64,000 bases of DNA from Oscillospiraceae bacterium (GCA_963617415.1 CAVEOK010000007.1:11692-75691); one strand, 5' to 3'. Shown: positions 19,075 to 60,882, counted from the first letter of the stretch. A program made the numbers and translations. Notes: generated by a model not told the origin, from the letters alone.

Positions 19075-21093
19075 ATGAAATATGAAAGACTGTTTCAGCC
19101 CATTCGTATCAGAGGCATGGAACTTCAAAACCGCATTATGATGCCGGCGATGCACCATCTTTATACCGAGAATGGGCATTGTACCCAGCGTTTTACAGAA
19201 TATTACAAGAGAAGAGCAGAGGGTGGAGCCGGTTTGATCGTGGTTGGCTCCTGCCGCTTTGATGAATATGGTGCTAAGGACAATTCCATGTCCCTGGCGG
19301 ATGAGTCTACAGTGGAGGGCTGGCAGGCGTTTATGCAGGAGATGCATAAGACAGAATGCAAGGTGGCTGTTCAGCTTTATCATGCAGGCCGCTATATGCC
19401 GGAGAGGGATGTTCCCTGCGGAAAGCCGGCCTTATCTCCTTCCGCGACCTTTTGTCCCTATACAAGAGAAACGGCACCGTCAATGAGCCATGAGCAGATC
19501 AAGGAAGTAATTGTTAAATATGCCGAGGGAGCAGAAAGAGCAAAAAGAGCCGGCTTTGATGCAGTTGAGATTGGCTGTAATTCCGGTTACCTTCTGAATC
19601 AGTTCCTCTCACCGATCACCAATCTGAGAGAGGATGAATATGGCGGAAGCTGGGAGAACAGAGTGCGTATGCCTCTGGAGGTGATTCGTGCCGTAAGAGA
19701 AGCGGTCGGAGACTATCCCATCATCCTTCGCCTGGGTGGAAATGATCTGGTACCGGAGTCCTGTACCAATGCAGAAATTTCTGATTTTGCAGCACTGGCA
19801 GAAAAAGCAGGAGTAGATCTTTTTAACGTAACGGGAGGCTGGCATCAGAGCCGGGTGCCTCAGATCACGGGAGATCTTCCGGCAGGCGGCTTTTCCTATC
19901 TGGCAGAAGGCATCAAGGCCAAGGTTTCTGTACCGGTATCTGCTTCGAATCGTGTGAATGATCCTTTGCTTGCAGAGAAGATTCTGGCTATGGAGCAGGC
20001 AGATATGGTTGCCATGGGAAGAGCCCTGCTTGCAGATCCGGAACTCCCAAAGAAAGCAAAGAGCGGAAGAAGAGCCCAGATCAGACCCTGTATGGGCTGC
20101 AACCAGGGATGCCTTGCCAATACCTTTTTTGACCGTCCGATTGAATGTCTGGTCAATCCCATATGCGGCAGGGAACTTAGCATTCTGGAAGAGAAAGTCA
20201 GGGAGAGAAAGAAAATCCTGGTCATTGGCGGAGGTCCGGCAGGTATGGAATGTGCCTATCGTGCGGCGAAAAGAGGGCATGCAGTTGTCTTAAGGGAAAA
20301 GGCCGACCGTCTGGGCGGACAGCTCCTTCTGGCAGCCAAAACGACAGCACATCAGGATTTCGAAAGACTGATCGCTTATTATGAGCTTGCACTTGATCTG
20401 GCAGGAGTAGATGTAGAACTGTCATGTGAGGATGCTTTGGAGAATGCGGGAGACTTTGATCAGATCGTTCTTGCAATCGGAGGAAAGGGAGCAGATTTCC
20501 GGATTTCGTCAGACGACAGCGTCCAGTTTATGACGGTGGAGGAGATGCTGACAGAAGAAAAAATTCCCGGCAAGGATGTTGTTATTGTTGGGGCAAGCTT
20601 TGTAACGGCATCTGCGGCAGAGACCCTGGCCAGACGAAGCTCTATTTCGGAAGAGCAGCTCTACCACCTGTCCGCATTTGAGGCAGAAACACCGGAAAAG
20701 ATCAGGACACTGTTAAATTCCAGCTCCAGAAGAATTACGATCGTTGATCGTTTGAAGAAGATCGGCATTGGCTTTGAGTCCGGCGTAGGCTGGCCCTGCA
20801 TGTCAGAGCTGGGAAGACTCCATGTGAAGAAGCTGCCGAGAACAGAAATCAAGAAGATTGAAAATGGCATGGTATTTGCCCTTTCTGAGGACAGAGAAGG
20901 AAAGCAGACAGAGCTTCAGATTAAATGCGACAGCCTGATCTTCAGCCCGGGTGCCCATCCCCAGCCGGAGTATGCTGCACTTGTAAAGAATGCCTGTCCA
21001 AAGGCAGAGATCTTCGAGCTGGGCAATTGCAAGAAAACAGGGAAGGCGATCGATGCGATCAGAGAGGGCTGTATCTTAGGCTGCAGCCTATAA
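19075..21093 (+). CDS. OYE-type NADH:flavin oxidoreductase fused to an FAD/NAD(P)-binding domain (2,4-dienoyl-CoA reductase / 2-enoate reductase / BaiH-like)
   Basis: N-terminal TIM-barrel OYE motifs (QLYHAGR, GFDAVEI), a CMGCNQGC Fe-S motif, then a VIGGGPAGMECA Rossmann fold. Confidence 0.85.
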   Translation: MKYERLFQPIRIRGMELQNRIMMPAMHHLYTENGHCTQRFTEYYKRRAEGGAGLIVVGSCRFDEYGAKDNSMSLADESTVEGWQAFMQEMHKTECKVAVQLYHAGRYMPERDVPCGKPALSPSATFCPYTRETAPSMSHEQIKEVIVKYAEGAERAKRAGFDAVEIGCNSGYLLNQFLSPITNLREDEYGGSWENRVRMPLEVIRAVREAVGDYPIILRLGGNDLVPESCTNAEISDFAALAEKAGVDLFNVTGGWHQSRVPQITGDLPAGGFSYLAEGIKAKVSVPVSASNRVNDPLLAEKILAMEQADMVAMGRALLADPELPKKAKSGRRAQIRPCMGCNQGCLANTFFDRPIECLVNPICGRELSILEEKVRERKKILVIGGGPAGMECAYRAAKRGHAVVLREKADRLGGQLLLAAKTTAHQDFERLIAYYELALDLAGVDVELSCEDALENAGDFDQIVLAIGGKGADFRISSDDSVQFMTVEEMLTEEKIPGKDVVIVGASFVTASAAETLARRSSISEEQLYHLSAFEAETPEKIRTLLNSSSRRITIVDRLKKIGIGFESGVGWPCMSELGRLHVKKLPRTEIKKIENGMVFALSEDREGKQTELQIKCDSLIFSPGAHPQPEYAALVKNACPKAEIFELGNCKKTGKAIDAIREGCILGCSL

Positions 21094-23162: not shown

Positions 23163-23210
23163 AAGGCTTGAGATAAAAGGATAAAAAAGAATACATAAAG
23201 AAGAATGAAT

Positions 23211-23292
23211 AAAGGCGGGAGCTTCTGCCCAAAATCAAAAACCCTTAGAAAGTGTGTTTTTGATCTGGCAGAAGCTCCCGCCTTTTGTTTTT
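23211..23292. terminator. long palindromic bidirectional terminator (copy 1 of a repeat family)
   Basis: Outer arms GGCGGGAGCTTCTGCC / GGCAGAAGCTCCCGCC. Inner arms ATCAAAAAC / GTTTTTGAT. Flanked by an A-run and a T-run. It lies between convergent Dabb and tyrS genes. Confidence 0.7.
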
Positions 23293-23309
23293 ATGTAAGG
23301 ATGCCTTCC

Positions 23310-24533
23310 TTATTCAACAGTTACCTTGTGGTAAACCTTCTTACCCTTCTTGATCACAATGCCGGCCTTAACCGCATCCAGTGTTACAACTGCATTTGGA
23401 TCGGTTACCTTTTCATCATCAAGGGCGACACCATTCTGCTGCATGAGGCGGCGGCCTTCGCTGTTGGTCTTGATCAGTCCGCATTTGGACAGCATATCAA
23501 TCACACGGATAGAGTCGTCTGTGAAATCTGCCTCACTCAGAGTGGTGGAAGGCATATTTGCGGCATCCATATTACCGGAGAAGAGGGAAGAAGCTGTATC
23601 TTGAGCCTTCTTTGCTTCATCCTCTCCGTGTACCATGCTGGTAAGCTCGTAAGCCAGAATCTTCTTGGCCTCGTTCAGCTGGGAGCCTTCCCACTTATCC
23701 ATCTCGTCGATCTGCTCGAGAGGAAGGAAGGTCATCATACGCAGGAATTTCAGGACATCTGCGTCATCTACATTTCTCCAGTACTGGTAGAAATCATAGG
23801 GGCTTGTCTTGTCCGGATCAAGCCATACGGCACCGCCGGCTGTCTTGCCCATCTTGGTACCATCATGCTTCAGCAGAAGATTGATGGTCATAGCACCTGC
23901 ATCCTTGCCCAGTTTCTTGCGGATCAGTTCGGTACCGGCCAGCATATTGGACCACTGGTCGTCACCGCCGAACTCGAGGTTGCAGCCGTAATCCTGGTAG
24001 AGCTTGAGGAAATCATAGCCCTGCATCAGCATATAGGAAAATTCAAGGAAGGAAAGTCCTTTTTCCATGCGGTTGACATAAGCGCGGGCTCTGAGCATTT
24101 CATTTACAGAAAAGTGAGCGCCGATATCCCGCATAAAATCAAGGAAGTTCAAATCCCTGAGCCAGTCTGCATTATTTACGATCTGAGCCTTTCCTTCACC
24201 GAATTCGATAAAGCGGCTCATCTGTTTTTTGAAGCATTCTACATTATGATCAATGGTTTCAACAGTCATCATGGAGCGCATGTCGCTTCTTCCGGACGGA
24301 TCACCAATCATTGCGGTACCGCCGCCGACAAGAGCAATCGGGCGGTTGCCTGCCATCTGAAGACGCTTCATCAAGGTCAAAGCCATAAAATGACCGACAT
24401 GAAGAGAATCTGCGGTCGGATCAAAGCCGATATAAAAGGTTGCCTTTCCGTTATTAACAAGGTCGCTGATCAGCTCTTCGTCTGTTACCTGTGCGATCAG
24501 GCCTCTTGCCTTCAGTTCTTCGTAAATTCCCAT
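23310..24533 (-). CDS. tyrS: tyrosine--tRNA ligase
   Basis: HVGH (as LHVGHF) and KMGKT class-I signatures. C-terminal S4-like domain. Confidence 0.95.
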   Translation of the reverse strand: MGIYEELKARGLIAQVTDEELISDLVNNGKATFYIGFDPTADSLHVGHFMALTLMKRLQMAGNRPIALVGGGTAMIGDPSGRSDMRSMMTVETIDHNVECFKKQMSRFIEFGEGKAQIVNNADWLRDLNFLDFMRDIGAHFSVNEMLRARAYVNRMEKGLSFLEFSYMLMQGYDFLKLYQDYGCNLEFGGDDQWSNMLAGTELIRKKLGKDAGAMTINLLLKHDGTKMGKTAGGAVWLDPDKTSPYDFYQYWRNVDDADVLKFLRMMTFLPLEQIDEMDKWEGSQLNEAKKILAYELTSMVHGEDEAKKAQDTASSLFSGNMDAANMPSTTLSEADFTDDSIRVIDMLSKCGLIKTNSEGRRLMQQNGVALDDEKVTDPNAVVTLDAVKAGIVIKKGKKVYHKVTVE

Positions 24534-24585
24534 TTTAAAAATCCTCCTCTTATTTTGGGACAGTACCCTCCCAAAAAGCCCTAAA

Positions 24586-39281: not shown

Positions 39282-40181
39282 ATGCCCAGTGAAGTTTCTG
39301 TGCGCTGCCTACTGGCTTCAGCACGGTATGGCAGTTTTACGAAGGCGGCAGAGGAATTATATATGACCCGGCAGGCAGTGAGCCAACAGATTGCTGCTCT
39401 GGAACGGGAGCTTAATGCAAAGCTCTTTGACCGTACCACAGCAAAGGTCATACCCACGCCAGTAGGCGAGTTGTACATCAGCTTTTTTAGCGACTTGCTT
39501 CGCCAGTGGGAAGAGGTACAAGGCAAGGCGGAATCCATCCTTCATCAGCAGGGTGAGACCATCCGTATCGGCTGCCTTTATGCTACCGATCTGGGTGATC
39601 GGCTACTGGAAAAGGTGGAAGAGGGACGAGCCCGGGGACATCGTTTTGATATTATCTGGGAGCGCCGGGAGGCACATGAACTGCTGACACAATTATTGGA
39701 AGGAAAACAGGATATTATATTTGTGTTCGATCAAACCGTGTTAAGCTCTGCAAAATCGGATTCTCTGGACTATTTTGACTTTGACCGATCACAGGGAGTC
39801 ATTGCCGTTCGCAAGAATCATCCGCTTGTGCACCCTGGTGCAAGCGCGAAGGATTTTGAACAGGAGCCTTGCTATCTTGCCGAGGGAATGCAGCCGGGAA
39901 TGCAGACGAAAGCTGATTTCCTGCGGGATTTTGCCCAATGCGGCCTAAATTTTACCAATGTCCAGGTACTGCCAAACCGTGAATCTGTTCAGACTATGGT
40001 CGAGTCAGGACATGGTATTACCACTTGTACTGATATGGAGCGCTTCATTCATTACCCGAATATTATCAGCTATCCGATCGGTCGCTTTCAGGAGATATAT
40101 TGCGTTTGGCGCAAAAACGAAAGACGTCCTCACATTCAGGCTTTCCTTGCCCTTCTTCGGGAAGATTATGATTCCCAATAA
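39282..40181 (+). CDS. LysR-family transcriptional regulator
   Basis: wHTH: YGSFTKAAEELYMTRQAVSQQIAALERELNAKLFDR. The preferred ATG at 39282 is preceded by GGGGGAGGG. Confidence 0.9.
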   Translation: MPSEVSVRCLLASARYGSFTKAAEELYMTRQAVSQQIAALERELNAKLFDRTTAKVIPTPVGELYISFFSDLLRQWEEVQGKAESILHQQGETIRIGCLYATDLGDRLLEKVEEGRARGHRFDIIWERREAHELLTQLLEGKQDIIFVFDQTVLSSAKSDSLDYFDFDRSQGVIAVRKNHPLVHPGASAKDFEQEPCYLAEGMQPGMQTKADFLRDFAQCGLNFTNVQVLPNRESVQTMVESGHGITTCTDMERFIHYPNIISYPIGRFQEIYCVWRKNERRPHIQAFLALLREDYDSQ

Positions 40182-40217
40182 CTGAAATAGAATAGCAAAT
40201 TGAATAACAAATGATAG

Positions 40218-40261
40218 AAAAGATTGACAAGCCGAATATTTCCGGTCTTGTCAATCTTTTT
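40218..40261. terminator. intrinsic (bidirectional-type) terminator after the LysR gene
   Basis: AAAAGATTGACAAG ... CTTGTCAATCTTTT hairpin with A and T flanks. Confidence 0.75.
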
Positions 40262-40339
40262 GTTTACAAGAGCATGAAAAAGGCTTGCTTGTTAAGCTGC
40301 CGAGGAGATGTTATAACAAAAGTGCACAAAGGAGCGCTC

Positions 40340-40354
40340 TTATTGCAAGAATAA
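40340..40354. promoter_or_regulatory. candidate LysR-type operator (T-N11-A palindrome)
   Basis: TTATT-GCAAG-AATAA perfect dyad about 45 nt upstream of the permease start. Confidence 0.35.
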
Positions 40355-40396
40355 CATAAGCATATTCCACAAAAAATGGAAAAGGAGGGAAAAGAA

Positions 40397-41737
40397 ATGA
40401 CAGGTATCGCAGCATCTGCTATTGCGGTTATCCTTGGTATAGTAGTATTCATCATTTTAGCCTATAAAGGAATGTCCCCCATTTTGGCTTCGCTTGTTGC
40501 GGCAGTAATCATAGGTTTTACTTGTGAAGGCGGTGTGAAAAACGCCATTTTCAATACCTTTATGCCTCAGGCGGTTGACTTTATGAGTATGGTATTGCTC
40601 CTGATCGTTGTAGGAGGGCTATTGGCGGCAGTGTTGGAGATCACAGGCACAACAGATTCCTTGGCAAATGGTATTATTTGTCTCTTAGGTGAACGGTCTA
40701 TCCCGGTTATTGTTTTTGTTATGACCGGACTCTTGTGTTTTCTGGGTGTCGGTTCCTACCAGTTCATTGTTGCGCCTCTGGCACTTGGCCTTCTGCAAAA
40801 GGCAAATGTCCCCCGTAATGTGGGGCTGATCGCCATGATGGTCGGTGCAAACGCGGTTACCTATTGTTTGCCAGGTACATCAGTTACGCCGAACCTGATG
40901 CCCACTACGATCCTTGGAACAAATATTTACGCCGGAGCAGTTCCCGGCATGGTTGCTTTTGTTCTCGCCACAGTTCTCGGTTTGGCCTATGTATATTGGA
41001 TGATGCGTAACTATGCAAAGCAAGGCGTGGGCTTTGAGCAGAGTGCGGCAGTTATTTCTGAGCCGCCTGGAGGCGCAGCTCCGATAAACAATGAGAAGCC
41101 TATGCCTCCCTTCTGGACAGCGGTCGTTACGATTATTCTGCTGTTTGGTCTGTGTTTCCTCTTCACCATGGTTCCGGACATCAGACTGGACGCTACGCAA
41201 GCCGTTATCATGGCACAGCTGCTGGCTGCATTGTGGGCTTTCGTGATCAATTTCAAGTACATGAATAAAGCTACTATGTTGAAGGATCTCTCAAACGGCA
41301 CGCTTGCAGTTATTCCACTGATCGTCATGCTAGGCTTTATTTCCGGTTTTGGTGCAGTAGCACAGAGCACAGCTGCTTTTTCTGCTTTGCTTGGCAGCCT
41401 CTTGTCTATGCATATCAATCCTTATCTGCTCACTTTCATCGGCGTTGCAGTGCTGGCTGGCTGTATGGGCAACGGAACCGGCGCACTGGTTCTCGTATTG
41501 AACGTGCTTTATCCCACCTTAGCGGCATCCAATGCCAATATGGGAGCTGTCCATCGTATCGCCACTACCACAGCATCTACTCTGGATTCACTGCCCCATT
41601 GTACAAATGTGTGTGTTTCTATGCAGGTATTTGGCATGAACCATAAGCAAAGCTATAAGCAGGTCTTTATCGGTACCGTTGTCATTCCTCTTATCTATGC
41701 CGGTGTCACCACCTTGCTTAGCATGCTAATCTATTAA
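40397..41737 (+). CDS. GntP-like / ion-transporter-superfamily anion permease
   Basis: About 12 TM segments, with a C-terminal HRIATTTASTLDSLPH block resembling GntP-family permeases. The ATG at 40397 is preceded by AAGGAGGG. Confidence 0.6.
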   Translation: MTGIAASAIAVILGIVVFIILAYKGMSPILASLVAAVIIGFTCEGGVKNAIFNTFMPQAVDFMSMVLLLIVVGGLLAAVLEITGTTDSLANGIICLLGERSIPVIVFVMTGLLCFLGVGSYQFIVAPLALGLLQKANVPRNVGLIAMMVGANAVTYCLPGTSVTPNLMPTTILGTNIYAGAVPGMVAFVLATVLGLAYVYWMMRNYAKQGVGFEQSAAVISEPPGGAAPINNEKPMPPFWTAVVTIILLFGLCFLFTMVPDIRLDATQAVIMAQLLAALWAFVINFKYMNKATMLKDLSNGTLAVIPLIVMLGFISGFGAVAQSTAAFSALLGSLLSMHINPYLLTFIGVAVLAGCMGNGTGALVLVLNVLYPTLAASNANMGAVHRIATTTASTLDSLPHCTNVCVSMQVFGMNHKQSYKQVFIGTVVIPLIYAGVTTLLSMLIY

Positions 41738-41763
41738 TTTTCTTAGAAAGGAGCATTCATAAT

Positions 41764-42498
41764 ATGAAGATCACAGGACTTTCTCTGGAGGAGATGGTCT
41801 CGCGCTGGGAGGATCGGCGCGAAATTCAAAATCTGATGGGACGTTATACTTACTCTCTTCTTCTCAAGCAAGAGAAAGATATTTTTGACACATTCTGGTG
41901 CAAAAAAGCCGAGAAGCCAACGCTGGGGCTGAATGACGGCTGGTATATCGGCTATGATGATGTACGCGGCTATTACGACGCTTTGCATCGCAAGACGCTT
42001 TTGCGTACCAAGCTCATCATGCAGGATTTTGCCGATCAGGCGGAGGGCAAGACAGAGGACGAACTCTACGGCTGCGGCGTGCTGGATCATAAGCCCTTGG
42101 GCAACCAGATCGTTGAGATAGCCGCTGACGGACAGACGGCCAAGGGCTTCTGGTATGTGGTAGGCAAGCAGGATGAATATGGTGTATCCGGCCCCTTGTC
42201 TTACTGGACCTTCGGTATGTTCGGTGTGGATTTTGTCTGGGAGGACGGTGAATGGCGCATCTGGCATCTGACTTATGTGGAAGATGTTCACACCCCTTGC
42301 GGCGAAAACTGGGCATCACCGGCCAAGGAACGTCAGGCGAATCCCATCTACGCGCCAATGGCAGAATTCGAGATGCCAAAGCCAACGGAGCAGGCTTGCC
42401 TTCGCACATTGTACAATCCGGCAAGAACATTTACCCGCAGCCTGCCGCTGCCGGAGGCATATACAACCTTTGCTGATACCTTCAGCTATGGTCGATAA
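41764..42498 (+). CDS. NTF2-fold / SnoaL-like protein, paralogue 1 (244 aa)
   Basis: IVEIAADGQTAKGFWY ... WEDGEWRIWHLTY core typical of SnoaL_4-type NTF2 domains. About 80 aa of C-terminal extension. Confidence 0.7.
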   Translation: MKITGLSLEEMVSRWEDRREIQNLMGRYTYSLLLKQEKDIFDTFWCKKAEKPTLGLNDGWYIGYDDVRGYYDALHRKTLLRTKLIMQDFADQAEGKTEDELYGCGVLDHKPLGNQIVEIAADGQTAKGFWYVVGKQDEYGVSGPLSYWTFGMFGVDFVWEDGEWRIWHLTYVEDVHTPCGENWASPAKERQANPIYAPMAEFEMPKPTEQACLRTLYNPARTFTRSLPLPEAYTTFADTFSYGR

Positions 42499-42512
42499 GG
42501 AGGGATCACACA

Positions 42513-43217
42513 ATGAGCAATTATGAAGAAAAAGAAACCATGTGGCGCGTCTGGGCGGTGGAGCAGATCAAAGATTTGATGAGCCGTCGGGCAATGTATT
42601 CCGCCAACGAGGAGCGCGCACGGGAATTGGATGAACTTTGGGTCAGCCAGCCCGCCCATCAGGCTACAGCATCCTTTGGCCGAAACTATGGCTATTATGT
42701 TGGGCTGGACGAAATCCGCAGCTACTATGTGGACGCGCATCAGAAGCGTATTGATTCACTAAATGGTACAGGGTATATGGAGTGCCATCCGGTTTGCTCT
42801 CCCTACGTTCAGTTGTCCGATGATGGGCAAAGCGCACGTGGACTCTGGTACTCCATCGGGCAGGAAACTTACCCTGACGAAAATGGTCGCAGCCGGGGAC
42901 TCTGGGTCAATGATAAGATTGCAGCTGATTTTCTATTAGAAGAGGATGGTTGGAAGATCTGGCATCTGATCCTATCCAATGACGTGTGGCATGAGGCCGG
43001 TACAGCAATCACGGAAATGCCGGATAAGATTCCGGAAGAAATGGATTGGATACGCAAAGAATTTGGTAAGCCGACCATTTCCATGACCGTGCATAATCCG
43101 CTCTATCTCTGGTGCGATGATTATCCCACGATCCCACCGCGTTACAAGAAGATTAACGCAGAGAACAGTTATGGACCTGAAGGTCATCCTAATTACAGCA
43201 AGGAGGTACAGTCATGA
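42513..43217 (+). CDS. NTF2-fold / SnoaL-like protein, paralogue 2 (234 aa)
   Basis: YVQLSDDGQSARGLWY ... EEDGWKIWHLIL core. It starts 14 nt after paralogue 1. Confidence 0.7.
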   Translation: MSNYEEKETMWRVWAVEQIKDLMSRRAMYSANEERARELDELWVSQPAHQATASFGRNYGYYVGLDEIRSYYVDAHQKRIDSLNGTGYMECHPVCSPYVQLSDDGQSARGLWYSIGQETYPDENGRSRGLWVNDKIAADFLLEEDGWKIWHLILSNDVWHEAGTAITEMPDKIPEEMDWIRKEFGKPTISMTVHNPLYLWCDDYPTIPPRYKKINAENSYGPEGHPNYSKEVQS

Positions 43218-43957
43218 ATCGAGATCTTCCTTTGTCCCAGCGTGTGACCCGCGCCGCTGACAGCTGTGAGCTGGAGCGAGTGCTGGCTACACATAATTAT
43301 CTGCATGCCGCAAGCCGGTCCAGTGAAGAATGGTCTACCGTCTGGTCAAAACGGGATGACACATCCTGGGCACACTTTTTTGGCCGGATGAGGGGATATG
43401 CTTCCGTCTGGATGGGCAGTGTAGTAGACTACGACCAGCAGTGCATCGAAAATTATCGAGAGGTCGAGGCAAACTATCCGGAAGTTGCCGGTATGGATTA
43501 TCGGCCCCTGTTCAATAATGCCATGCATACCCTGACCAATGGTATCATCGAGGTAGCGGACGACGGTGAAAGCGCCCGTGCATCCTATCTGACGCCCGGC
43601 CTCTTGTACAGCTTTCTGAATGATGACAAAAAGCCTTGGGGGGCAATGCTCTGGGAGCGTTATGGCATGGACTTTATCAAGGAAAATGGTGAATGGAAGT
43701 TCCTGCACTATCAGGTTTGCCCGGAGTTCTTTGCGCTCTATGACATTTTCAACCCGGCTGAGCTGAAATACCATAACCTGAAAGAGGGCATCCCCGATCC
43801 GCCACAATCCGCTCCGAGATATGTTGAAGATCCGGGACCACTGCACAAGGAATGTGATCCGCTGCAGCCGGTGCAGAACACCTGCCCGCCGCCTCTGCCT
43901 TATGCAAAACTAGATAACCATAACACTTATACGCAGTGCGACTGCTACGACGATTGA
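43214..43957 (+). CDS. NTF2-fold / SnoaL-like protein, paralogue 3 (247 aa)
   Basis: IIEVADDGESARASYL ... KENGEWKFLHYQV core. ATGA overlap with paralogue 2. Cys/Pro-rich acidic tail (CPPPLPYAKLDNHNTYTQCDCYDD). Confidence 0.7.
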   Translation: MNRDLPLSQRVTRAADSCELERVLATHNYLHAASRSSEEWSTVWSKRDDTSWAHFFGRMRGYASVWMGSVVDYDQQCIENYREVEANYPEVAGMDYRPLFNNAMHTLTNGIIEVADDGESARASYLTPGLLYSFLNDDKKPWGAMLWERYGMDFIKENGEWKFLHYQVCPEFFALYDIFNPAELKYHNLKEGIPDPPQSAPRYVEDPGPLHKECDPLQPVQNTCPPPLPYAKLDNHNTYTQCDCYDD

Positions 43958-43966
43958 GGTGAGATT

Positions 43967-44317
43967 ATGATTTCAATTAAAGAAATGACACAGAACTGCT
44001 TTTTGCCGGAAGGCATCTATCATCTGAATATCCTTGCTCCAAAGGGAACGCCTGAGCACATCATTGAGTTCAAATTGGAGCACGGCATCTATCAGGCAAA
44101 AATTCAGACGGAGCATGGTCCCCAAGAGGCCAAGCACCTGCATTTGGGAGATAAGTCTGTTTCCTGGCAGCAGATGGGTGGCACGCCCGGTACAGAGCTC
44201 TTTCAATATGACATGGAGATCTTCCCCGGCGGCTTCCTGATGGGAAAATGCTACCGCATTGACGTTCCCGAGGACGAAGCACCGGCTAGTCCAGTTATCG
44301 GAGAACCCGAGGAATAA
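43967..44317 (+). CDS. hypothetical 116-aa protein, last gene of the NTF2 module
   Basis: Starts 9 nt after paralogue 3. Family not recognised. Confidence 0.5.
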   Translation: MISIKEMTQNCFLPEGIYHLNILAPKGTPEHIIEFKLEHGIYQAKIQTEHGPQEAKHLHLGDKSVSWQQMGGTPGTELFQYDMEIFPGGFLMGKCYRIDVPEDEAPASPVIGEPEE

Positions 44318-44437: not shown

Positions 44438-44594
44438 AAAAGGCAAGATGTTCTGCTCAAGATCAAAAACCGTTAGGAGAACCTCAGTGCTTAGCAAGAG
44501 GTGCATGGTACATGCGCCTCGAGCTTAGCATCTGCTAGGTTCTCCTTCGAGCGAGAGCGTGTTTTTGATCTGGCAGAATCATTCTTGCCTTTTT
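44438..44594. repeat. composite palindromic element (copy 2, with a nested ~80-nt insert)
   Basis: Outer arms AAAAGGCAAGATGTTCTGC / GGCAGAATCATTCTTGCCTTTTT. Cores at 44451-44476 and 44557-44578 match 23223-23248 (23/26) and 23252-23273 (21/22). Nested hairpins AGGAGAACCT/AGGTTCTCCT and GAGGTGCATG/CATGCGCCTC. Confidence 0.75.
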
Positions 44595-44734: not shown

Positions 44735-45388
44735 CTACATATAAGTCAAATCCGGTGATATCTTGAAAGGTGCACCGGTTTTTTCTTTGATTTCCTCAAT
44801 GCTGACTCCTTCTCGATGCTCGAGCAGGGTAAGTCCCTCTGTCTTAGAGACTTCAAAAAAAGCAAGTTCAGTAACGATATACTTTACAACGCCGATTCCG
44901 GTCAGGGGCAGGGTGCAGCTTTCCAGAATCTTGGGCTTTCCGTCTTTGGTACAGTGATCAGTTGCAATGATAACATCCTCAATGCCCGAAACCAGATCCA
45001 TGGCGCCGCCCATGCCGGGATAGCTGCCGGGTCTTGCCCAGTTTGCAAGATCTCCGTATTGGGAAACCTCGAAGCAGCCAAGGACTGTCGCATGAAGCTT
45101 TCCGGTTCGGATCATGCCGAAGGAGGTACAGATGTCAAAAACACTGGCACCGGAAACCGTGCGGATGGAATTGCCGCCGGCATCAAAGTAGGGTGCCTCT
45201 GGCTCCAGACCAGCATAAATCTCGCCGACACCCAGGATACCATTCTCCGACTGGATGACAACATTGTCGGTAATATAATTAGAAACCAAGGTGGGAATGC
45301 CTACGCCCAGATTGATCACGTCTCCGTCATGAAACCAGGAGGCGATTTTTTTTGCAATAAACTGTCTGTTTTCCTGTGTTGTGCTCAT
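44735..45388 (-). CDS. 3-oxoacid / acetate CoA-transferase subunit B
   Basis: INLGVGIPT and SENGILGVG motifs, ~217 aa. Confidence 0.9.
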   Translation of the reverse strand: MSTTQENRQFIAKKIASWFHDGDVINLGVGIPTLVSNYITDNVVIQSENGILGVGEIYAGLEPEAPYFDAGGNSIRTVSGASVFDICTSFGMIRTGKLHATVLGCFEVSQYGDLANWARPGSYPGMGGAMDLVSGIEDVIIATDHCTKDGKPKILESCTLPLTGIGVVKYIVTELAFFEVSKTEGLTLLEHREGVSIEEIKEKTGAPFKISPDLTYM

Positions 45389-45400
45389 AGCGGCCTCCTT

Positions 45401-46069
45401 TTATGCGTCCTGAAACTGATCCAGAATCATATCAACAAATACGCCCGGTGTGATTACATTCTCAGCTGCGATTTCATCGATTTCGACAAAATGATCTGCC
45501 TGAACGATGGTTTTGTCACCAGCCATGGCAATGATAGGATTACTGTTGCGGGCAGTTCCTCTGTAGGTAAGGTTGCCGTAGTGATCTGCGGTCGCGGCAC
45601 GAACCAGGGAAATATCTGCCCGAAGGGCAGTTTCCAGCATATATTCCTGTCCGTTAATGATCTCTGTTTTCTGGCCATGCTGGGCAACGGTGCCAAGTCC
45701 TGTTTTGACCATAACGCCGCCTAAGCCGACGCCGCCTGCACGAATCCGTTCAGCGATGGTGCCCATGGGACAGAATTCTACTTCGATTTTGCCGGAAGCC
45801 ATAAGCTCCAGATTTTTCGGAATATTACCGGCATGGGCGATGATAATCTTATCAAAAATACCCATATGATAAAGCTCGGCAGCGCTGGCATCCAGGGCAA
45901 TATTGGTAAGATGCTTTGCTCCGCTTTCTACAAGTGCCTGAAAAAGCATATTGGGACAGCCATGGAAGGCAAAGCCGCCGGTCATTATGGTTTGTCCGTC
46001 ATGAAATTCCTTGATGATATCTTCTTTGGTATAAAGCTTACTGATCAAATTTTTCCCCTCTTTTCTCAA
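45401..46069 (-). CDS. 3-oxoacid / acetate CoA-transferase subunit A
   Basis: DGQTIMTGGF, CPMGTIAERIRAGG and YRGTARNSNP motifs. Confidence 0.9.
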   Translation of the reverse strand: MRKEGKNLISKLYTKEDIIKEFHDGQTIMTGGFAFHGCPNMLFQALVESGAKHLTNIALDASAAELYHMGIFDKIIIAHAGNIPKNLELMASGKIEVEFCPMGTIAERIRAGGVGLGGVMVKTGLGTVAQHGQKTEIINGQEYMLETALRADISLVRAATADHYGNLTYRGTARNSNPIIAMAGDKTIVQADHFVEIDEIAAENVITPGVFVDMILDQFQDA

Positions 46070-46125
46070 TTTTTCTGCTTTGCATTATAGCATAGACAAT
46101 TTAGAGAAGGATAGAGGAATAGGCC

Positions 46126-46677
46126 TTATTTTTCCCGCAGATAGTCCAGCCAGTTGACGCTGTCGATGGGATAGCTCTTTGGATTTTTGATCCAGATCAG
46201 GATCAGCTGCATAATGCCGCCGGAATAGAAGGCGGCCTTCATTTCATTACTCTCTTTTGCATCGGGCTGATGCACTTCCAGAAAAAGAAAAACGTTATGA
46301 CGGACAGCTTCTGAAAAAATCTCCATCATGGAGGGGAGAAGCTGACTGTTCTTTAGATTTTTGACCAGCTGGGGATGGCTTTCAAAAAAAGCGATCAGCT
46401 GATGGAAAATCTGATCGTTATAGGGCTCTTCCTTATCTTTGTCTTCAGAGGAATATTCCGGCAGGGCAGCGATGAATTCATCCCGCATTTCCTGAATAAA
46501 GAAGGCCAGAAAATCGTATTTGTCCTGAAAATGGTTGTAAAAGGTAGCCCGGCGGATTTCAGCCTCCTGGCAAAGCTGCTGCACGCTAATGTCCTCAAAA
46601 CGCTTCTTCTCCAGCAGATCCAGAAAGGCTTTTTTTAGACTGCGAAGGGTCTTGCTTGTTCTTAAATCACTCATCAA
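46126..46677 (-). CDS. TetR/AcrR-family transcriptional regulator
   Basis: N-terminal HTH: FEDISVQQLCQEAEIRRATFYNHFQDKYD. Confidence 0.85.
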   Translation of the reverse strand: MMSDLRTSKTLRSLKKAFLDLLEKKRFEDISVQQLCQEAEIRRATFYNHFQDKYDFLAFFIQEMRDEFIAALPEYSSEDKDKEEPYNDQIFHQLIAFFESHPQLVKNLKNSQLLPSMMEIFSEAVRHNVFLFLEVHQPDAKESNEMKAAFYSGGIMQLILIWIKNPKSYPIDSVNWLDYLREK

Positions 46678-57653: not shown

Positions 57654-58061
57654 ATGAAAAATTTAGAAGAAAGCAGAAAATATTTTGCAAATGACCGCTA
57701 TGCAACTGAGCTGACGGGCATTATAATTGATGAGGTTCGGGAGGACTATGCAAAATGCAGCATGGAAATCCGCCCGCAGCACTTGAATGCAAACGGTTTT
57801 GTGATGGGTGGAGCGATCTTTACCCTGGCTGATTTTGCATTTGCGGCTGCATCGAACACAGAAGAGAGAAATAGCGTTTCCCTGTCCAGCACGATTGAAT
57901 ATTTCCGTCCGGCAAAGGGCAGTGCCCTCTATGCCGAGGCTGTCTGCAAAAAAGGAGGAAGACAGGTCGGATTTTATGAGATTACAGTGACAGACGAGGA
58001 AGGAAAGAAGATCGCACAGGTGAATACCAGCGGATTCTTTTCTGCCGGAAGCAAGGAGTGA
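57654..58061 (+). CDS. PaaI-family hotdog-fold thioesterase
   Basis: NANGFVMGGAIFTLADFAF motif, 135 aa. Confidence 0.8.
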   Translation: MKNLEESRKYFANDRYATELTGIIIDEVREDYAKCSMEIRPQHLNANGFVMGGAIFTLADFAFAAASNTEERNSVSLSSTIEYFRPAKGSALYAEAVCKKGGRQVGFYEITVTDEEGKKIAQVNTSGFFSAGSKE

Positions 58062-59425
58062 GTATGAATATTATTGTTGTGGGCTGTGGAAAGGTAGGCG
58101 GAAGTGTTGCCGGACAGCTCAGTGATGAGGATCATAATATTACAGTCATTGACATCAATCCCAAGACGATTGAATCTATTTCCATCAAATATGATGTGAT
58201 CGGCATGATCGGCAATGCCGGCAGTGCCAAGGTAATGAAGCAGGCAGGAATTGAACATGCGGATCTGCTTCTGGCCCTGACCGGAGATGATGAGCTGAAC
58301 CTGCTCTGCTGTCTCTTTGGCCGTACCCTTGGTAAATGCAAGACCGTTGCCCGGATCAAGAATCCGATCTATGAGGATGAGATCGGCGTTCTGCAGGAGG
58401 AGCTGGGACTGGCCATGATCGTCAATTCCGAGCGTCTGGCCGCTCAGGAGGTTGCCAGAGTGGTTCGTTTTCCGGCAGCCCAGAGGGTGGATACCTTCAA
58501 TAAGGGCCGAGTGGAGCTTCTGCGCTACCGAATTCCGGCGGAATCCAAATTTGACGGATGCTCGGTTGCAGATATGAACCAAAAATATCATCTGGATGCC
58601 CTGATCTGTGCGGTTGAGCAGGCAGACGGCAATGTTGTTATTCCGAATGGTGATTTTATTCTTCATTCCAAGGATGTGATTTCCTTTGCCACAGCACCGA
58701 ACAGGGAAAATCAGCTCATGCAGATCTTCGGTATCGGCAAGACCAGAACCAACAGCTGTATGATCGTTGGCGGAGGCGGGATTGCCTATTATCTGGCCAA
58801 GCAGCTGATGCAGATGGGCATCAGCGTCACCATCATAGAAAAAAATAAGGAGCGTTGTCAGCATCTGGCGGATCAGCTGGAGGGCGCCGTTATTATTTAC
58901 GGAGACGCGATCGATGAGTCTATTTTGGAAGAGGAAGGCCTTGCCCAGACAGACAGCTTTGCAGCCCTGACCAATATGGATGAGACCAATATTATCCTGA
59001 CACTTTTCGCTCAGAAGAAAACCAGAGCAAAGCTGATCACCAAGGTGCATTCCCTGAATATCGACAGTGTTCTTGGCAATATGGATCTGGATACGGTTGT
59101 CTGCCCGAAGAATGTCGTTGCGGATATGGTTTCCCAGTATGTAAGGGCAATGAGCAATTCCGTGGGAAGTAATGTAGAGACCCTCTATCATCTGATCAAT
59201 AATAAGGTTGAGGCACTGGAATTTATTATCAAGGCCAACTGCCTGATGATCGGAAAGCCCCTGATGGAGCTGAATCTGAAGGAAGGCGTGATTATTGCCT
59301 CTATCTGCCGCGGCCGGCAGGTTATTATTCCCAACGGTAAAAGTGTGATCCGGGAGGGAGACAGCGTGATCGTTGTAACAACCAGACGCGGTGTAAATGA
59401 TATTGTGGATATATTGGATATTTAA
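58058..59425 (+). CDS. trkA: Trk potassium-uptake protein TrkA (two RCK units)
   Basis: IIVVGCGKVG and MIVGGGGIAY Rossmann repeats. ATGA-type overlap with the upstream gene. Confidence 0.9.
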   Translation: MSMNIIVVGCGKVGGSVAGQLSDEDHNITVIDINPKTIESISIKYDVIGMIGNAGSAKVMKQAGIEHADLLLALTGDDELNLLCCLFGRTLGKCKTVARIKNPIYEDEIGVLQEELGLAMIVNSERLAAQEVARVVRFPAAQRVDTFNKGRVELLRYRIPAESKFDGCSVADMNQKYHLDALICAVEQADGNVVIPNGDFILHSKDVISFATAPNRENQLMQIFGIGKTRTNSCMIVGGGGIAYYLAKQLMQMGISVTIIEKNKERCQHLADQLEGAVIIYGDAIDESILEEEGLAQTDSFAALTNMDETNIILTLFAQKKTRAKLITKVHSLNIDSVLGNMDLDTVVCPKNVVADMVSQYVRAMSNSVGSNVETLYHLINNKVEALEFIIKANCLMIGKPLMELNLKEGVIIASICRGRQVIIPNGKSVIREGDSVIVVTTRRGVNDIVDILDI

Positions 59426-59442
59426 GAGGAGAGGTCTTTCAG

Positions 59443-60882
59443 ATGAATCGTAGAGCGATTGCACGTGTTACGGGACTTGTCCTGATCATAGAAGCGGTTT
59501 TGCTGCTGCTGCCCTTGCTGGTGTCCTTTATCTACGGAGAAGGGGATACCATCAAAGCCTTTTTGATAAGCATAGGCATCACCCTTTTGGCTGGTATTAT
59601 CCTGTCGGCTCTGTCAGGAAAATCAACAACCTTTTATGCGAAGGAGGGCCTGGTTACCGTCGCCCTAAGCTGGGTTATGATCAGCCTTTTCGGAGCCCTT
59701 CCTTTTGTGATCGAGGGAGCGATCCCGAATTATATTGATGCGGTTTTTGAGGTGATTTCCGGCTTTACAACAACAGGATCCAGTATCCTGACGGACGTAG
59801 AGGCTCTGTCTCACGGACTTTTGTTTTGGAGAAGCTTTACCAACTGGATTGGCGGCATGGGTGTTCTTGTCTTTATGCTGGCGATCCTGCCCAGGGATAA
59901 AGCCTACAATATGCATCTCATGCGGGCAGAGAGTCCGGGCCCCCAGGTAGACAAGCTGGTTCCCAGAGTCCGCAAATCAGCAGAGATTCTTTATGAGATT
60001 TATTTTGGAATTACGGTCGGAGGCATTATTCTCCTGATTCTGGCCGGTATGCCTGTTTTTGATGCTTTTTGTCTCAGCTTCAGCTCAGCCGGAACAGGCG
60101 GCTTTGGTATTTTGAACAGCAGTATCGGCTCCTACACGACCTTGCAGCAGCTGATTCTGACCGTCTTTATGCTGGCCTGCGGGGTGAATTTTAACCTTTA
60201 TTATCTGATTCTGGTCAAACAGGCCAGAAGTGCTTTTCGGTCAGAAGAGCTTCGGGTTTATATTGGGATCATACTTGGAGCCGCTGCATTGATCACCATT
60301 GATATTCATTCCTTATACAATAGCTGGCTTTATGCCGGAAAGGATGCCCTGGTACAGGTTGCATCCATTATCACGACGACAGGCTTTGCCTCCACGGATT
60401 TTAATCTCTGGCCCACCCTGTCAAAGACCATACTGGTTCTTTTGATGTTCTGCGGCGGCTGTGCCTCCAGTACGGCAGGCGGAATCAAGGTCAGCCGTCT
60501 GGTCATCGGCTATAAGCTAGTCAAGAAGGAGGTCAAAACCTTCATTCACCCCAGAAGCGTTCGTTCCATCAGTATGGACGGCAATGTACTGGGAGAGAGC
60601 GTAACCAGAGGCGTTTGCGTATATTATGTAATTTATGCGATGATTTTCCTGGTCTCCATGTTTTTGATCGCCTTTAATGAATTGGATATGGAAACAACCT
60701 TCACTTCGGTTGCAACCTGCTTCAATAATGTAGGACCGGGACTCAGTCTGGTGGGACCGACCGGTAATTTTGCTTCTTTATCCTACCTGAGCAAGATTGT
60801 TCTCGGTATTGATATGCTGGCAGGAAGACTGGAGATCTTCCCCATGATCGTGCTTCTTTTCCCAAGAGCCTGGAAACACTAA
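59443..60882 (+). CDS. trkH: TrkH-family potassium transporter
   Basis: Repeated pore-loop motifs (SGFTTTGSS, SSAGTGGF, TTTGFAS, SSTAGGIK). Confidence 0.9.
   Translation: MNRRAIARVTGLVLIIEAVLLLLPLLVSFIYGEGDTIKAFLISIGITLLAGIILSALSGKSTTFYAKEGLVTVALSWVMISLFGALPFVIEGAIPNYIDAVFEVISGFTTTGSSILTDVEALSHGLLFWRSFTNWIGGMGVLVFMLAILPRDKAYNMHLMRAESPGPQVDKLVPRVRKSAEILYEIYFGITVGGIILLILAGMPVFDAFCLSFSSAGTGGFGILNSSIGSYTTLQQLILTVFMLACGVNFNLYYLILVKQARSAFRSEELRVYIGIILGAAALITIDIHSLYNSWLYAGKDALVQVASIITTTGFASTDFNLWPTLSKTILVLLMFCGGCASSTAGGIKVSRLVIGYKLVKKEVKTFIHPRSVRSISMDGNVLGESVTRGVCVYYVIYAMIFLVSMFLIAFNELDMETTFTSVATCFNNVGPGLSLVGPTGNFASLSYLSKIVLGIDMLAGRLEIFPMIVLLFPRAWKH

Follow-up and report, generated by a model that had tools for sequence, protein, structure and literature searches.

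Three co-conserved NTF2/SnoaL paralogues in a LysR-permease locus of an Oscillospiraceae bacterium: a putative heterotrimeric eliminase

A 64,000-nucleotide (nt) stretch of DNA from an Oscillospiraceae bacterium (GCA_963617415.1 CAVEOK010000007.1:11692-75691), termed here the window, carries at positions 39282-44317 a six-gene locus. At the core of the locus are three consecutive genes, A, B and C, which encode diverged NTF2/SnoaL-like proteins and are kept together, in that order, in many related bacteria. This gene structure and the co-conservation of the trio are as good as certain. It is proposed that the locus is an uptake-and-transformation operon under the control of its LysR-family regulator. 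A secondary permease of the carboxylate type would import an organic acid, and an NTF2-fold enzyme that needs no cofactor would process the imported substrate. This enzyme is pictured as an A:B:C heterotrimer, one copy each, similar to the homotrimer of LdpA; the C-terminal arm of each subunit would clasp its neighbour. Subunit C would supply the acid/base site, consisting of His105 and Glu148 surrounded by His27, His31, Arg149 and Tyr150, and A and B would be degenerate paralogues that serve as scaffold and possibly offer ligand-binding pockets. The chemistry would most likely be an elimination, either a dehydration or a related lyase step beside a carbonyl or phenol, that yields a conjugated enone, enoate or quinone-methide-type product. 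At related loci, a neighbouring flavoenzyme of the old yellow enzyme (OYE) or fumarate-reductase type would reduce this product, and a short-chain dehydrogenase/reductase (SDR) would sometimes oxidise the substrate beforehand. A small beta-barrel protein encoded at the end of the locus might act as an optional helper that binds small molecules. This composite of an inducible importer and a heterotrimeric eliminase that has a single catalytic subunit is the best explanation found, at slightly under even confidence.

The six open reading frames (ORFs) are all on the plus strand, in the order LysR, permease, A, B, C and an ORF of 116 amino acids (aa). The LysR-family regulator (39282-40181, 299 aa) carries HTH_1 and LysR_substrate domains. 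Its frame is open from 39246, and the start is most likely at 39282, because the ATG there follows a GGAGGG ribosome-binding site and 299 aa is the commonest database form (85 contigs). The permease (40397-41737, 446 aa), a distantly GntP-like member of the ion-transporter superfamily, is open from 40376. It probably starts at ATG 40397, since this start has the better ribosome-binding site and yields the commonest database form, 446 aa. The NTF2/SnoaL_4 subunits follow, A at 41764-42498 (244 aa), B at 42513-43217 (234 aa) and C at 43214-43957 (247 aa), and the accessory ORF occupies 43967-44317. There are 26 nt from the permease stop to A, 14 nt from A to B, an ATGA overlap of B and C, and 9 nt from C to the 116-aa ORF. 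The first-pass annotation of the window had described this layout, between 39282 and 44317, with the last three spacings, and all of this is confirmed in the sequence; the peptide blocks it quoted are likewise all found in the translations. A GGAGG-type ribosome-binding site can be read 5′ of every start. A terminator scan detected no terminator-like site between the operon genes beyond weak matches at chance level.

A, B and C match the SnoaL_4 family (PF13577) with scores of 37.8, 44.1 and 26.4 bits, the gathering cutoff being 24. NCBIfam has no model for any of the three or for the 116-aa protein, and proteins of the A, B and C types are either unnamed in databases or called 'hypothetical' or 'NTF2 family protein'. 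When the window proteins are compared by BLASTP, A and B are 27% identical over 231 columns (E 1e-21), A and C 19% identical over 253 columns (E 5e-11), and B and C 22% identical (E 4e-6). The alignments extend into the C-terminal ∼80 aa, where a common motif, P-x-P-Y-x-T...S/T-Y-G/T, is present. The proteins had been thought to share only the NTF2/SnoaL core, each with a C-terminal extension of its own; this does not hold, as the homology is full-length and the C-terminal motif is common to all three. On these alignments A, B and C are full-length paralogues that appear to descend from an ancestor of the size of LdpA (∼250 aa).

LdpA is a cofactor-free NTF2-fold enzyme that has a His-Asp dyad and a Glu-Tyr-Gln triad; it forms a homotrimer, which an extended C-terminal arm stabilises, and has a catalytic His (PMC9942872). 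The LdpA structures 8ABT, 8ABU, 8ABV and 8ABW are the only PDB sequence matches of A, B and C, whether a single sequence or a profile is used for the search. Identity to LdpA is ∼20%, with E values of 4e-6 to 1e-8. A matches with E 3.7e-6 as a single sequence and 1.6e-8 as a profile, and the B profile matches with E 3e-4. The structure of C, predicted by AlphaFold2 from an alignment of database homologues, is an alpha+beta cone with a C-terminal extension that displays little regular secondary structure (predicted local distance difference test score, pLDDT, 91). Foldseek matches this model to LdpA (E 6e-9), LinA, a putative scytalone dehydratase and BaiE, in that order, and the LinA and scytalone-dehydratase-like matches include 3S5C, 3A76, 5KVB and 3EF8. 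Judged by these comparisons, the trio resembles LdpA, LinA, BaiE and scytalone dehydratase in its probable action and is an orthologue of none of them. As the first-pass annotation had surmised, no characterised complex or pathway for the trio emerged from homology or structure searches, and LdpA is its only solved sequence relative.

The residue pattern was determined from 51 trios aligned jointly, with the LdpA columns taken from a profile alignment to NaLdpA. At the column of LdpA His97, His is present in C in 51 of 51 trios and in B in 33, and A has Lys in 31, Arg in seven and His in only two. At the column of Glu143, Glu is found in C in all 51; B has Gly in 27, Glu in 11 and Asp in six, and A has Gly in 47. 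In the window proteins, H105 and E148 of C align with the catalytic His97 and Glu143 of NaLdpA, and B has H92 and D134 at these columns. The H97Q form of NaLdpA is inactive. A is without the catalytic His and Glu, the catalytic set of B is partly degenerate, and C is the probable catalytic subunit. In addition, H27, H31, R149 and Y150 of C are kept in 51 of 51 sequences and are invariant in each of two alignments, in one of which H54 and H165 do not vary either. E113 also counts among the invariant residues of C. Of the three families, B is the one with the lowest number of invariant residues. In A, a separate set of polar residues (N23, N57, K127 and D156) is invariant, and the C-terminal T-F-S-Y-G motif of A-type proteins is nearly invariant. 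Other LdpA positions are not matched in the same way. The Asp40 column has Gly or Ala in C, Ala or Ser in B and Leu or Ile in A, in a weak, low-confidence part of the alignment near the N-terminus; the Tyr165 column has Val in all C proteins, and the Gln of the triad is unalignable. This pattern would most simply be read as a trimer in which one subunit is catalytic and two are degenerate.

The trio is not confined to the window. When one genome per species was scanned, at least 548 A-type genes were confirmed, a count that is a lower bound. The hosts are nearly all uncultured Oscillospiraceae, Clostridiales and Lachnospiraceae from human gut, rumen and termite gut; multiple loci per genome are frequent, and several genomes have at least three separate loci. 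A profile search with the C family among 1.84 billion representatives gave 783 clusters at 50% identity with E <= 1e-3, 340 with E <= 1e-10 and 93 with E <= 1e-30, which points to a real family of modest size. In three arrays outside the window, the A homologues are 51%, 43% and 39% identical to that of the window, and each lies in the same three-gene array. Genes in related loci were called with a codon-usage caller and then as stop-to-stop ORFs scored by three family hidden Markov models. By the latter procedure, 78 of the 85 loci have the order A-B-C, some of them with two sets, and the co-conservation is in line with the first-pass reading of the trio as one unit. Most of the loci without a full set run off the end of a contig, and L006, counted among the incomplete ones, is complete by database gene calls. 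Among 56 trios, at the A/B boundary as well as at B/C, the genes most commonly overlap by 4 nt. Pairwise divergences of A, B and C are correlated across loci (r = 0.85-0.87). In the clade of the window (loci L009, L010 and L011) the conserved module comprises LysR, permease, A, B and C. The locus had also been singled out as an uncharacterised putative system. Full-text literature searches on NTF2/SnoaL trios, heterotrimers and gut ene-reductase partners gave no description of it, so that part of the claim stands; it is no local oddity, however, and represents one member of a large family.

Two other NTF2 triples, more similar to LdpA, were observed at L089 2008-4091 (244/221/216 aa) and L090 356-2608 (262/238/240 aa). 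The His at the catalytic position is kept in all three members of the former, which is the second triple of its locus, and in two of three members of the latter. Thus, the three-gene arrangement recurs beyond the canonical A-B-C family.

A hetero-oligomer had been suggested for the three proteins from the start, and several observations now favour it: the precedent of the LdpA trimer with its C-terminal arm, the retention of the catalytic residues in C only, and the existence of natural fusions. In the two-domain protein P0321, an A domain (254 bits) and a B domain (250 bits) are present in one chain, and P0339 joins a C-like domain to an A/B-like one; P0326, P0376 and P0375 are further examples. 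Overall, an A-B-C heteromer is considered fairly probable. The family also has single-domain relatives with signal peptides, found in other phyla, that combine the C-type H...ERYG with the A-type TFSY tail, a pattern consistent with a homomeric ancestor. Four of the single-domain relatives (P0337, P0344, P0370 and P0388) have signal peptides and EF-hand-like N-terminal regions and are seemingly Gram-negative. A TonB-dependent receptor and an EF-hand protein are encoded beside the signal-peptide-bearing single-domain relatives at L007 6649-8895.

The residue pattern and the gene order also bear on the alternative that survives best, in which A, B and C each form a separate homotrimer and carry out consecutive or parallel steps (e.g. 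isomerase, dehydratase and lyase), linked by the pathway only. Each family does have its own conserved residue set, the triples at L089 and L090 keep the His in three and two members, respectively, and the known relatives are homomers. On the other hand, both His and Glu are missing from A, and in B the two positions vary. The A-B-C order and the stop/start overlaps are kept over ∼40-50% sequence divergence, two-domain fusions exist, and incomplete trios are mostly found at contig ends. Three independent enzymes are accordingly held to be unlikely.

With respect to chemistry, the NTF2 fold supports isomerase, epoxide hydrolase and cyclase reactions as well as eliminations. The trio might then carry out a ketosteroid-isomerase-like isomerisation, an epoxide hydrolysis or a cyclisation, all of which the fold permits on textbook grounds. 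The canonical Asp partner was not found in C, which displays an unusual cluster of invariant His residues instead (H27, H31, H54, H105 and H165), and an isomerase that shifts a double bond into conjugation would feed an ene-reductase just as an eliminase would. Yet the nearest relatives (LdpA, LinA, scytalone-dehydratase-like proteins and BaiE) are all eliminases and rank above every other NTF2 class, and the positions of the catalytic His and Glu of LdpA are exactly conserved in C. A non-eliminating reaction is judged to be rather improbable, and elimination chemistry centred on C is given about an even chance. Structural, non-catalytic subunits do have a precedent among NTF2-fold trimers in the beta subunits of Rieske oxygenases. 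A purely binding or structural role of the trio, as an assembly that sequesters or carries a ligand or as a structural partner of flavin reductases, is nevertheless very improbable. In favour of such a role, two of the three subunits have lost the catalytic residues, the trio is often directly beside large flavoenzymes and a Rieske-oxygenase entry is among the weak Foldseek matches of C (rank 50). Against it, the invariant polar site of C fits an enzyme active site, more than half of the loci, including the window, are without a nearby reductase, and matches of the beta-subunit type rank far below the eliminases.

Genes within three positions of the trio were counted at 76 non-redundant loci. 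The commonest neighbour is a flavoenzyme of ∼647 aa with OYE and Pyr_redox_2 domains, found at 32 loci and directly adjacent to the trio at 24. Also present are LysR regulators (19 loci), large lipoprotein-type solute-binding proteins (15), PucR-type regulators (12), ABC ATPases (11), FAD_binding_2 flavoproteins (8), permeases of the type in the window (7), SDR proteins (at least 4), BD-FAE-type esterases (4) and acetyl-CoA hydrolase/transferases (3). The closest PDB relatives of the trio-linked OYE enzymes are 2-naphthoyl-CoA reductase and 2,4-dienoyl-CoA reductase, and those of the FAD_binding_2 proteins are soluble fumarate reductases and ketosteroid dehydrogenases. L089, from a very prevalent human-gut Coprococcus, has, in this order, LysR, a hydrolase, the less diverged NTF2 triple, a permease homologue, an OYE reductase and the canonical A-B-C. 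In L011, an SDR gene is inserted in the interval between LysR and permease. By analogy with the bai operon, whose kinds of enzyme are assembled at trio loci, a logic of oxidation, elimination and reduction is suggested. A protein of ∼590 aa with a faint right-handed beta-helix signal was also seen beside trios at eight loci (e.g. L022 12349-14127), and a 469-aa homologue of it is encoded at L001, divergent from the trio.

The permease aligns end to end with Pfam GntP_permease at 29.3 bits (cutoff 22.5). Its score against the NCBIfam gntP model TIGR00791 is 23 bits. As this is far under the cutoff of 292.75, the protein is taken to be a distant member of the GntP transporter superfamily and no orthologue of gluconate transporters. 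The initial description of it as GntP-like has the Pfam match, just above its cutoff, in its favour, and the relationship is a distant one. The permease homologue in the Coprococcus locus is 29% identical over 99% coverage (E 1e-64). Both family-defining domains of the LysR regulator were detected (HTH_1 73.1 bits, LysR_substrate 62.7 bits), and no NCBIfam equivalog reaches its cutoff. Besides the 19 loci counted above, LysR adjoins the trio in all of the close orthologous loci L009-L011, and a role in control of the operon would be in keeping with its position.

The 116-aa protein has no Pfam or PDB sequence match, and only 13 clusters were found among 5.8 billion proteins. AlphaFold2 predicts a small all-beta barrel of about nine strands (pLDDT 86). 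Its Foldseek matches are weak (best E 3e-3): CRABP2/FABP-type proteins, with CRABP2 at a template modelling (TM) score of ∼0.45, and designed barrels and Cap15 at TM ∼0.6. The gene accompanies trios in L009, L035, L046 and L064 (32-38% identity in the last three) and is absent from L010. The first-pass annotation included it in the unit, and the 9-nt spacing is as described; across related loci, however, it is a rare companion, and on this distribution it appears to be an occasional accessory and no core part. At L090, a 52%-identical 116-aa homologue is the last gene of a tripartite ATP-independent periplasmic (TRAP) transporter operon, DctQ-DctM-DctP, which is divergent from a LysR gene, the NTF2 triple and an SDR gene. 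GntP-like permeases and TRAP systems are both importers of organic anions. That the importer changes from GntP-like to TRAP while the barrel stays is the best evidence for a carboxylate substrate and for a ligand-handling barrel, and the predicted barrel may be a ligand-handling accessory tied to carboxylate importers. For the clade of the window, a carboxylate substrate is a matter of roughly equal chances; that this carboxylate is a plant phenolic or lignin-type acid is, at most, a doubtful proposition.

Several points weigh against the proposed heterotrimeric eliminase and its carboxylate importer. The heterotrimer is argued from sequence comparison and from the analogy with LdpA. Conserved gene order and correlated divergence are also expected from simple co-inheritance of an operon, and some of the fusions may come from frameshifts in sequencing; the one in P0374 has the appearance of a read-through of this kind. 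With no dyad Asp at the aligned column in C, its mechanism may differ from that of LdpA, LinA and BaiE, and A, given its own invariant polar residues, could be catalytic in another way. ABC binding proteins of sugar or peptide type are found at other loci, and a carboxylate is not the substrate family-wide. Finally, the operon in the window is without an ene-reductase. The only one in the window (19075-21093, 672 aa, with OYE and Pyr_redox_2 domains) is 20 kilobases away. Its identity to the trio-linked reductases is ∼30%, and theirs to one another is ∼38%; it was considered as a partner and could not be linked to the trio.

Cofactor-free NTF2-fold eliminases catalyse key reactions in the 7-dehydroxylation of bile acids, the cleavage of lignin dimers and the breakdown of pesticides. 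Trios occur in multiple copies and beside ene-reductases, transporters and one-component regulators, as is usual for a substrate-diversified family that transforms dietary or host small molecules. In its furthest extension, the trio would be an obligate heterotrimeric eliminase, the first hetero-oligomer of the LdpA/LinA/BaiE class. Together with flavin ene-reductases, it would constitute a widespread, multi-copy toolkit of uncultured gut and rumen Oscillospiraceae and Lachnospiraceae, by which plant phenolic acids, lignin/lignan-type dimers or steroid-like carboxylates would be reductively dehydroxylated or cleaved. This is a tentative and somewhat doubtful extrapolation; if true, the reactions would be ones still without assigned gut enzymes. 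Identification of a substrate could assign genes to orphan gut biotransformations. If the trio does form a heterotrimer, it would provide a case study of the evolution of a homotrimer into a heterotrimer with pseudo-enzyme subunits. The operon in the window, which consists of regulator, importer, trio and beta-barrel, represents a minimal, cloneable version from a large family whose typical partner is a flavin ene-reductase.

The region between the LysR and permease genes displays several sequence signals. A terminator-like hairpin, AGATTGACAAG...CTTGTCAATCT followed by a T-run, can be read 3′ of the LysR gene at 40221-40261 on the plus strand; its stem is kept in L009 and partly in L010. This hairpin argues that the permease and the trio have their own promoter. 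A promoter block and candidate regulator site at 40283-40317 (plus strand) is conserved in the window, L009 and L010. Here a dyad, GCTTG-N5-TAAGC (40283-40297), overlies a -35-like TTGTTA (40289-40294), and 17 nt after the latter is an extended -10 sequence, TGnTATAAC (40309-40317). Intergenic conservation in the three loci takes the form AAAAGGCTTGCTTGT[C/T]AAGC ... TGTTATAAC AAAAGTGCACAAAG, in which AAAAGTGCACAAAG represents a third element conserved in the orthologous promoters. The block falls below the match rule of the promoter-scanning tool and was omitted by it; a promoter function is suggested by its conservation. A start near 40323 is predicted.

The first-pass annotation had pointed to another dyad in this promoter region, TTATT-GCAAG-AATAA. 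It is present at 40340-40354 (plus strand) and is unique in the window, but it is not conserved in the orthologous promoters. The pattern TTATT-N5-AATAA is matched at least once in 10 of 100 shuffles of the whole window, and the dyad is situated 3′ of the conserved -10 sequence, in the likely 5′ leader. As a LysR operator it is unsupported, because it is absent from the L009 and L010 promoters and the other dyad, over the -35, is the conserved one. The TTATT dyad is probably not a functional operator, and GCTTG-N5-(C/T)AAGC would be the better candidate for a LysR site.

At the other end of the locus, a near-perfect hairpin of ∼155 nt with nested inverted repeats, followed by a T-run, is found at 44438-44593. 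It is predicted to fold with -89.8 kcal/mol (z = -10.5), is present in a single copy in the window and is located in the 417-nt convergent gap between the 116-aa ORF and a CoA-transferase B gene. No RNA element at the locus matches Rfam at E <= 0.1. The hairpin is likely the 3′ boundary of the unit or its bidirectional terminator; alternatively to a large bidirectional terminator, it could be a palindromic insertion. The genes beyond it, which encode subunits B (217 aa) and A (222 aa) of a 3-oxoacid/acetate CoA-transferase and a TetR regulator (44735-46677, minus strand), were considered as part of the pathway and rejected, because they have no homologue in 88 related loci, are convergent and are separated by the gap with the large hairpin. 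The other genes that flank the operon likewise have no homologues in any of the 88 loci. Elsewhere in the window, two long ORFs have no Pfam match at E <= 1e-5. One is at 23205-24584 (plus strand, 459 aa); the other, at 57974-59464 (minus strand, 496 aa), shares part of its span with a 455-aa ORF of the other strand, and either of these two may be the true gene.

Compared with known systems, the fold and the probable chemistry of the trio are familiar, and its three-paralogue architecture with a single catalytic subunit, its distribution and its substrate are uncharacterised. To our knowledge, all known cofactor-free NTF2-fold eliminases are homo-oligomers from single genes, and a characterised heteromer of the LdpA/LinA/BaiE class is not known to us; the full-text searches gave none either. 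Trimers are formed by LinA, BaiE and scytalone dehydratase, those of LinA and scytalone dehydratase being homotrimers with a His-Asp dyad. Like C, LinA (the gamma-hexachlorocyclohexane dehydrochlorinase) and scytalone dehydratase are NTF2 cones and cofactor-free eliminases. Unlike the trio, they are proteins of ∼150 aa from single genes with a different ecology, and they have no detectable sequence similarity to it. The beta subunits of Rieske ring-hydroxylating oxygenases (alpha3beta3) are structural NTF2 trimers and offer a possible analogy for A and B; they differ in being identical copies that serve an oxygen-dependent alpha subunit, and no Rieske genes are present at the locus.

BaiE (4LEH, 4L8P and 4L8O; Clostridium scindens, C. 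hiranonis and C. hylemonae), also a homotrimer, shares with C the fold class and an origin in gut Clostridia. The likeness extends to the bai operon, in that trio loci mix a transporter, SDR, an NTF2 eliminase, OYE/Pyr_redox_2 enzymes and an occasional CoA-transferase. Unlike the trio proteins, BaiE has ∼168 aa and no C-terminal arm, and its 12-15% identity to C is at the level of the fold only. BaiE chains gave no sequence match to A, B or C, and no bai genes were found in the window. Bile acids are unlikely as a general substrate of the family, many loci being from rumen and termite-gut genomes; in the clade of the window they may yet be a substrate.

The closest known system is LdpA (LsdE) of Novosphingobium aromaticivorans and Sphingobium sp. 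SYK-6. It differs from the trio in being a homotrimer from a single gene of aerobic sphingomonads, whereas the trio consists of three diverged paralogues of strict anaerobes, two of which are without the catalytic pair, and no lignostilbene-pathway genes are nearby. The Glu-Tyr-Gln triad is not reproduced either: C keeps the Glu in 51 of 51 trios but has Val in place of Tyr165, and A and B lose the Glu. The resemblances are in size and architecture, ∼250 aa with an NTF2 cone and a long C-terminal arm in C as in LdpA, and in the catalytic His and motif-II Glu positions, which correspond to the invariant H105 and E148 of C. Also as in LdpA, a conserved C-terminal extension of ∼80 aa, with the motif PxPYxT...SYG, is present in each of A, B and C, and by analogy it might here too serve in trimerisation.

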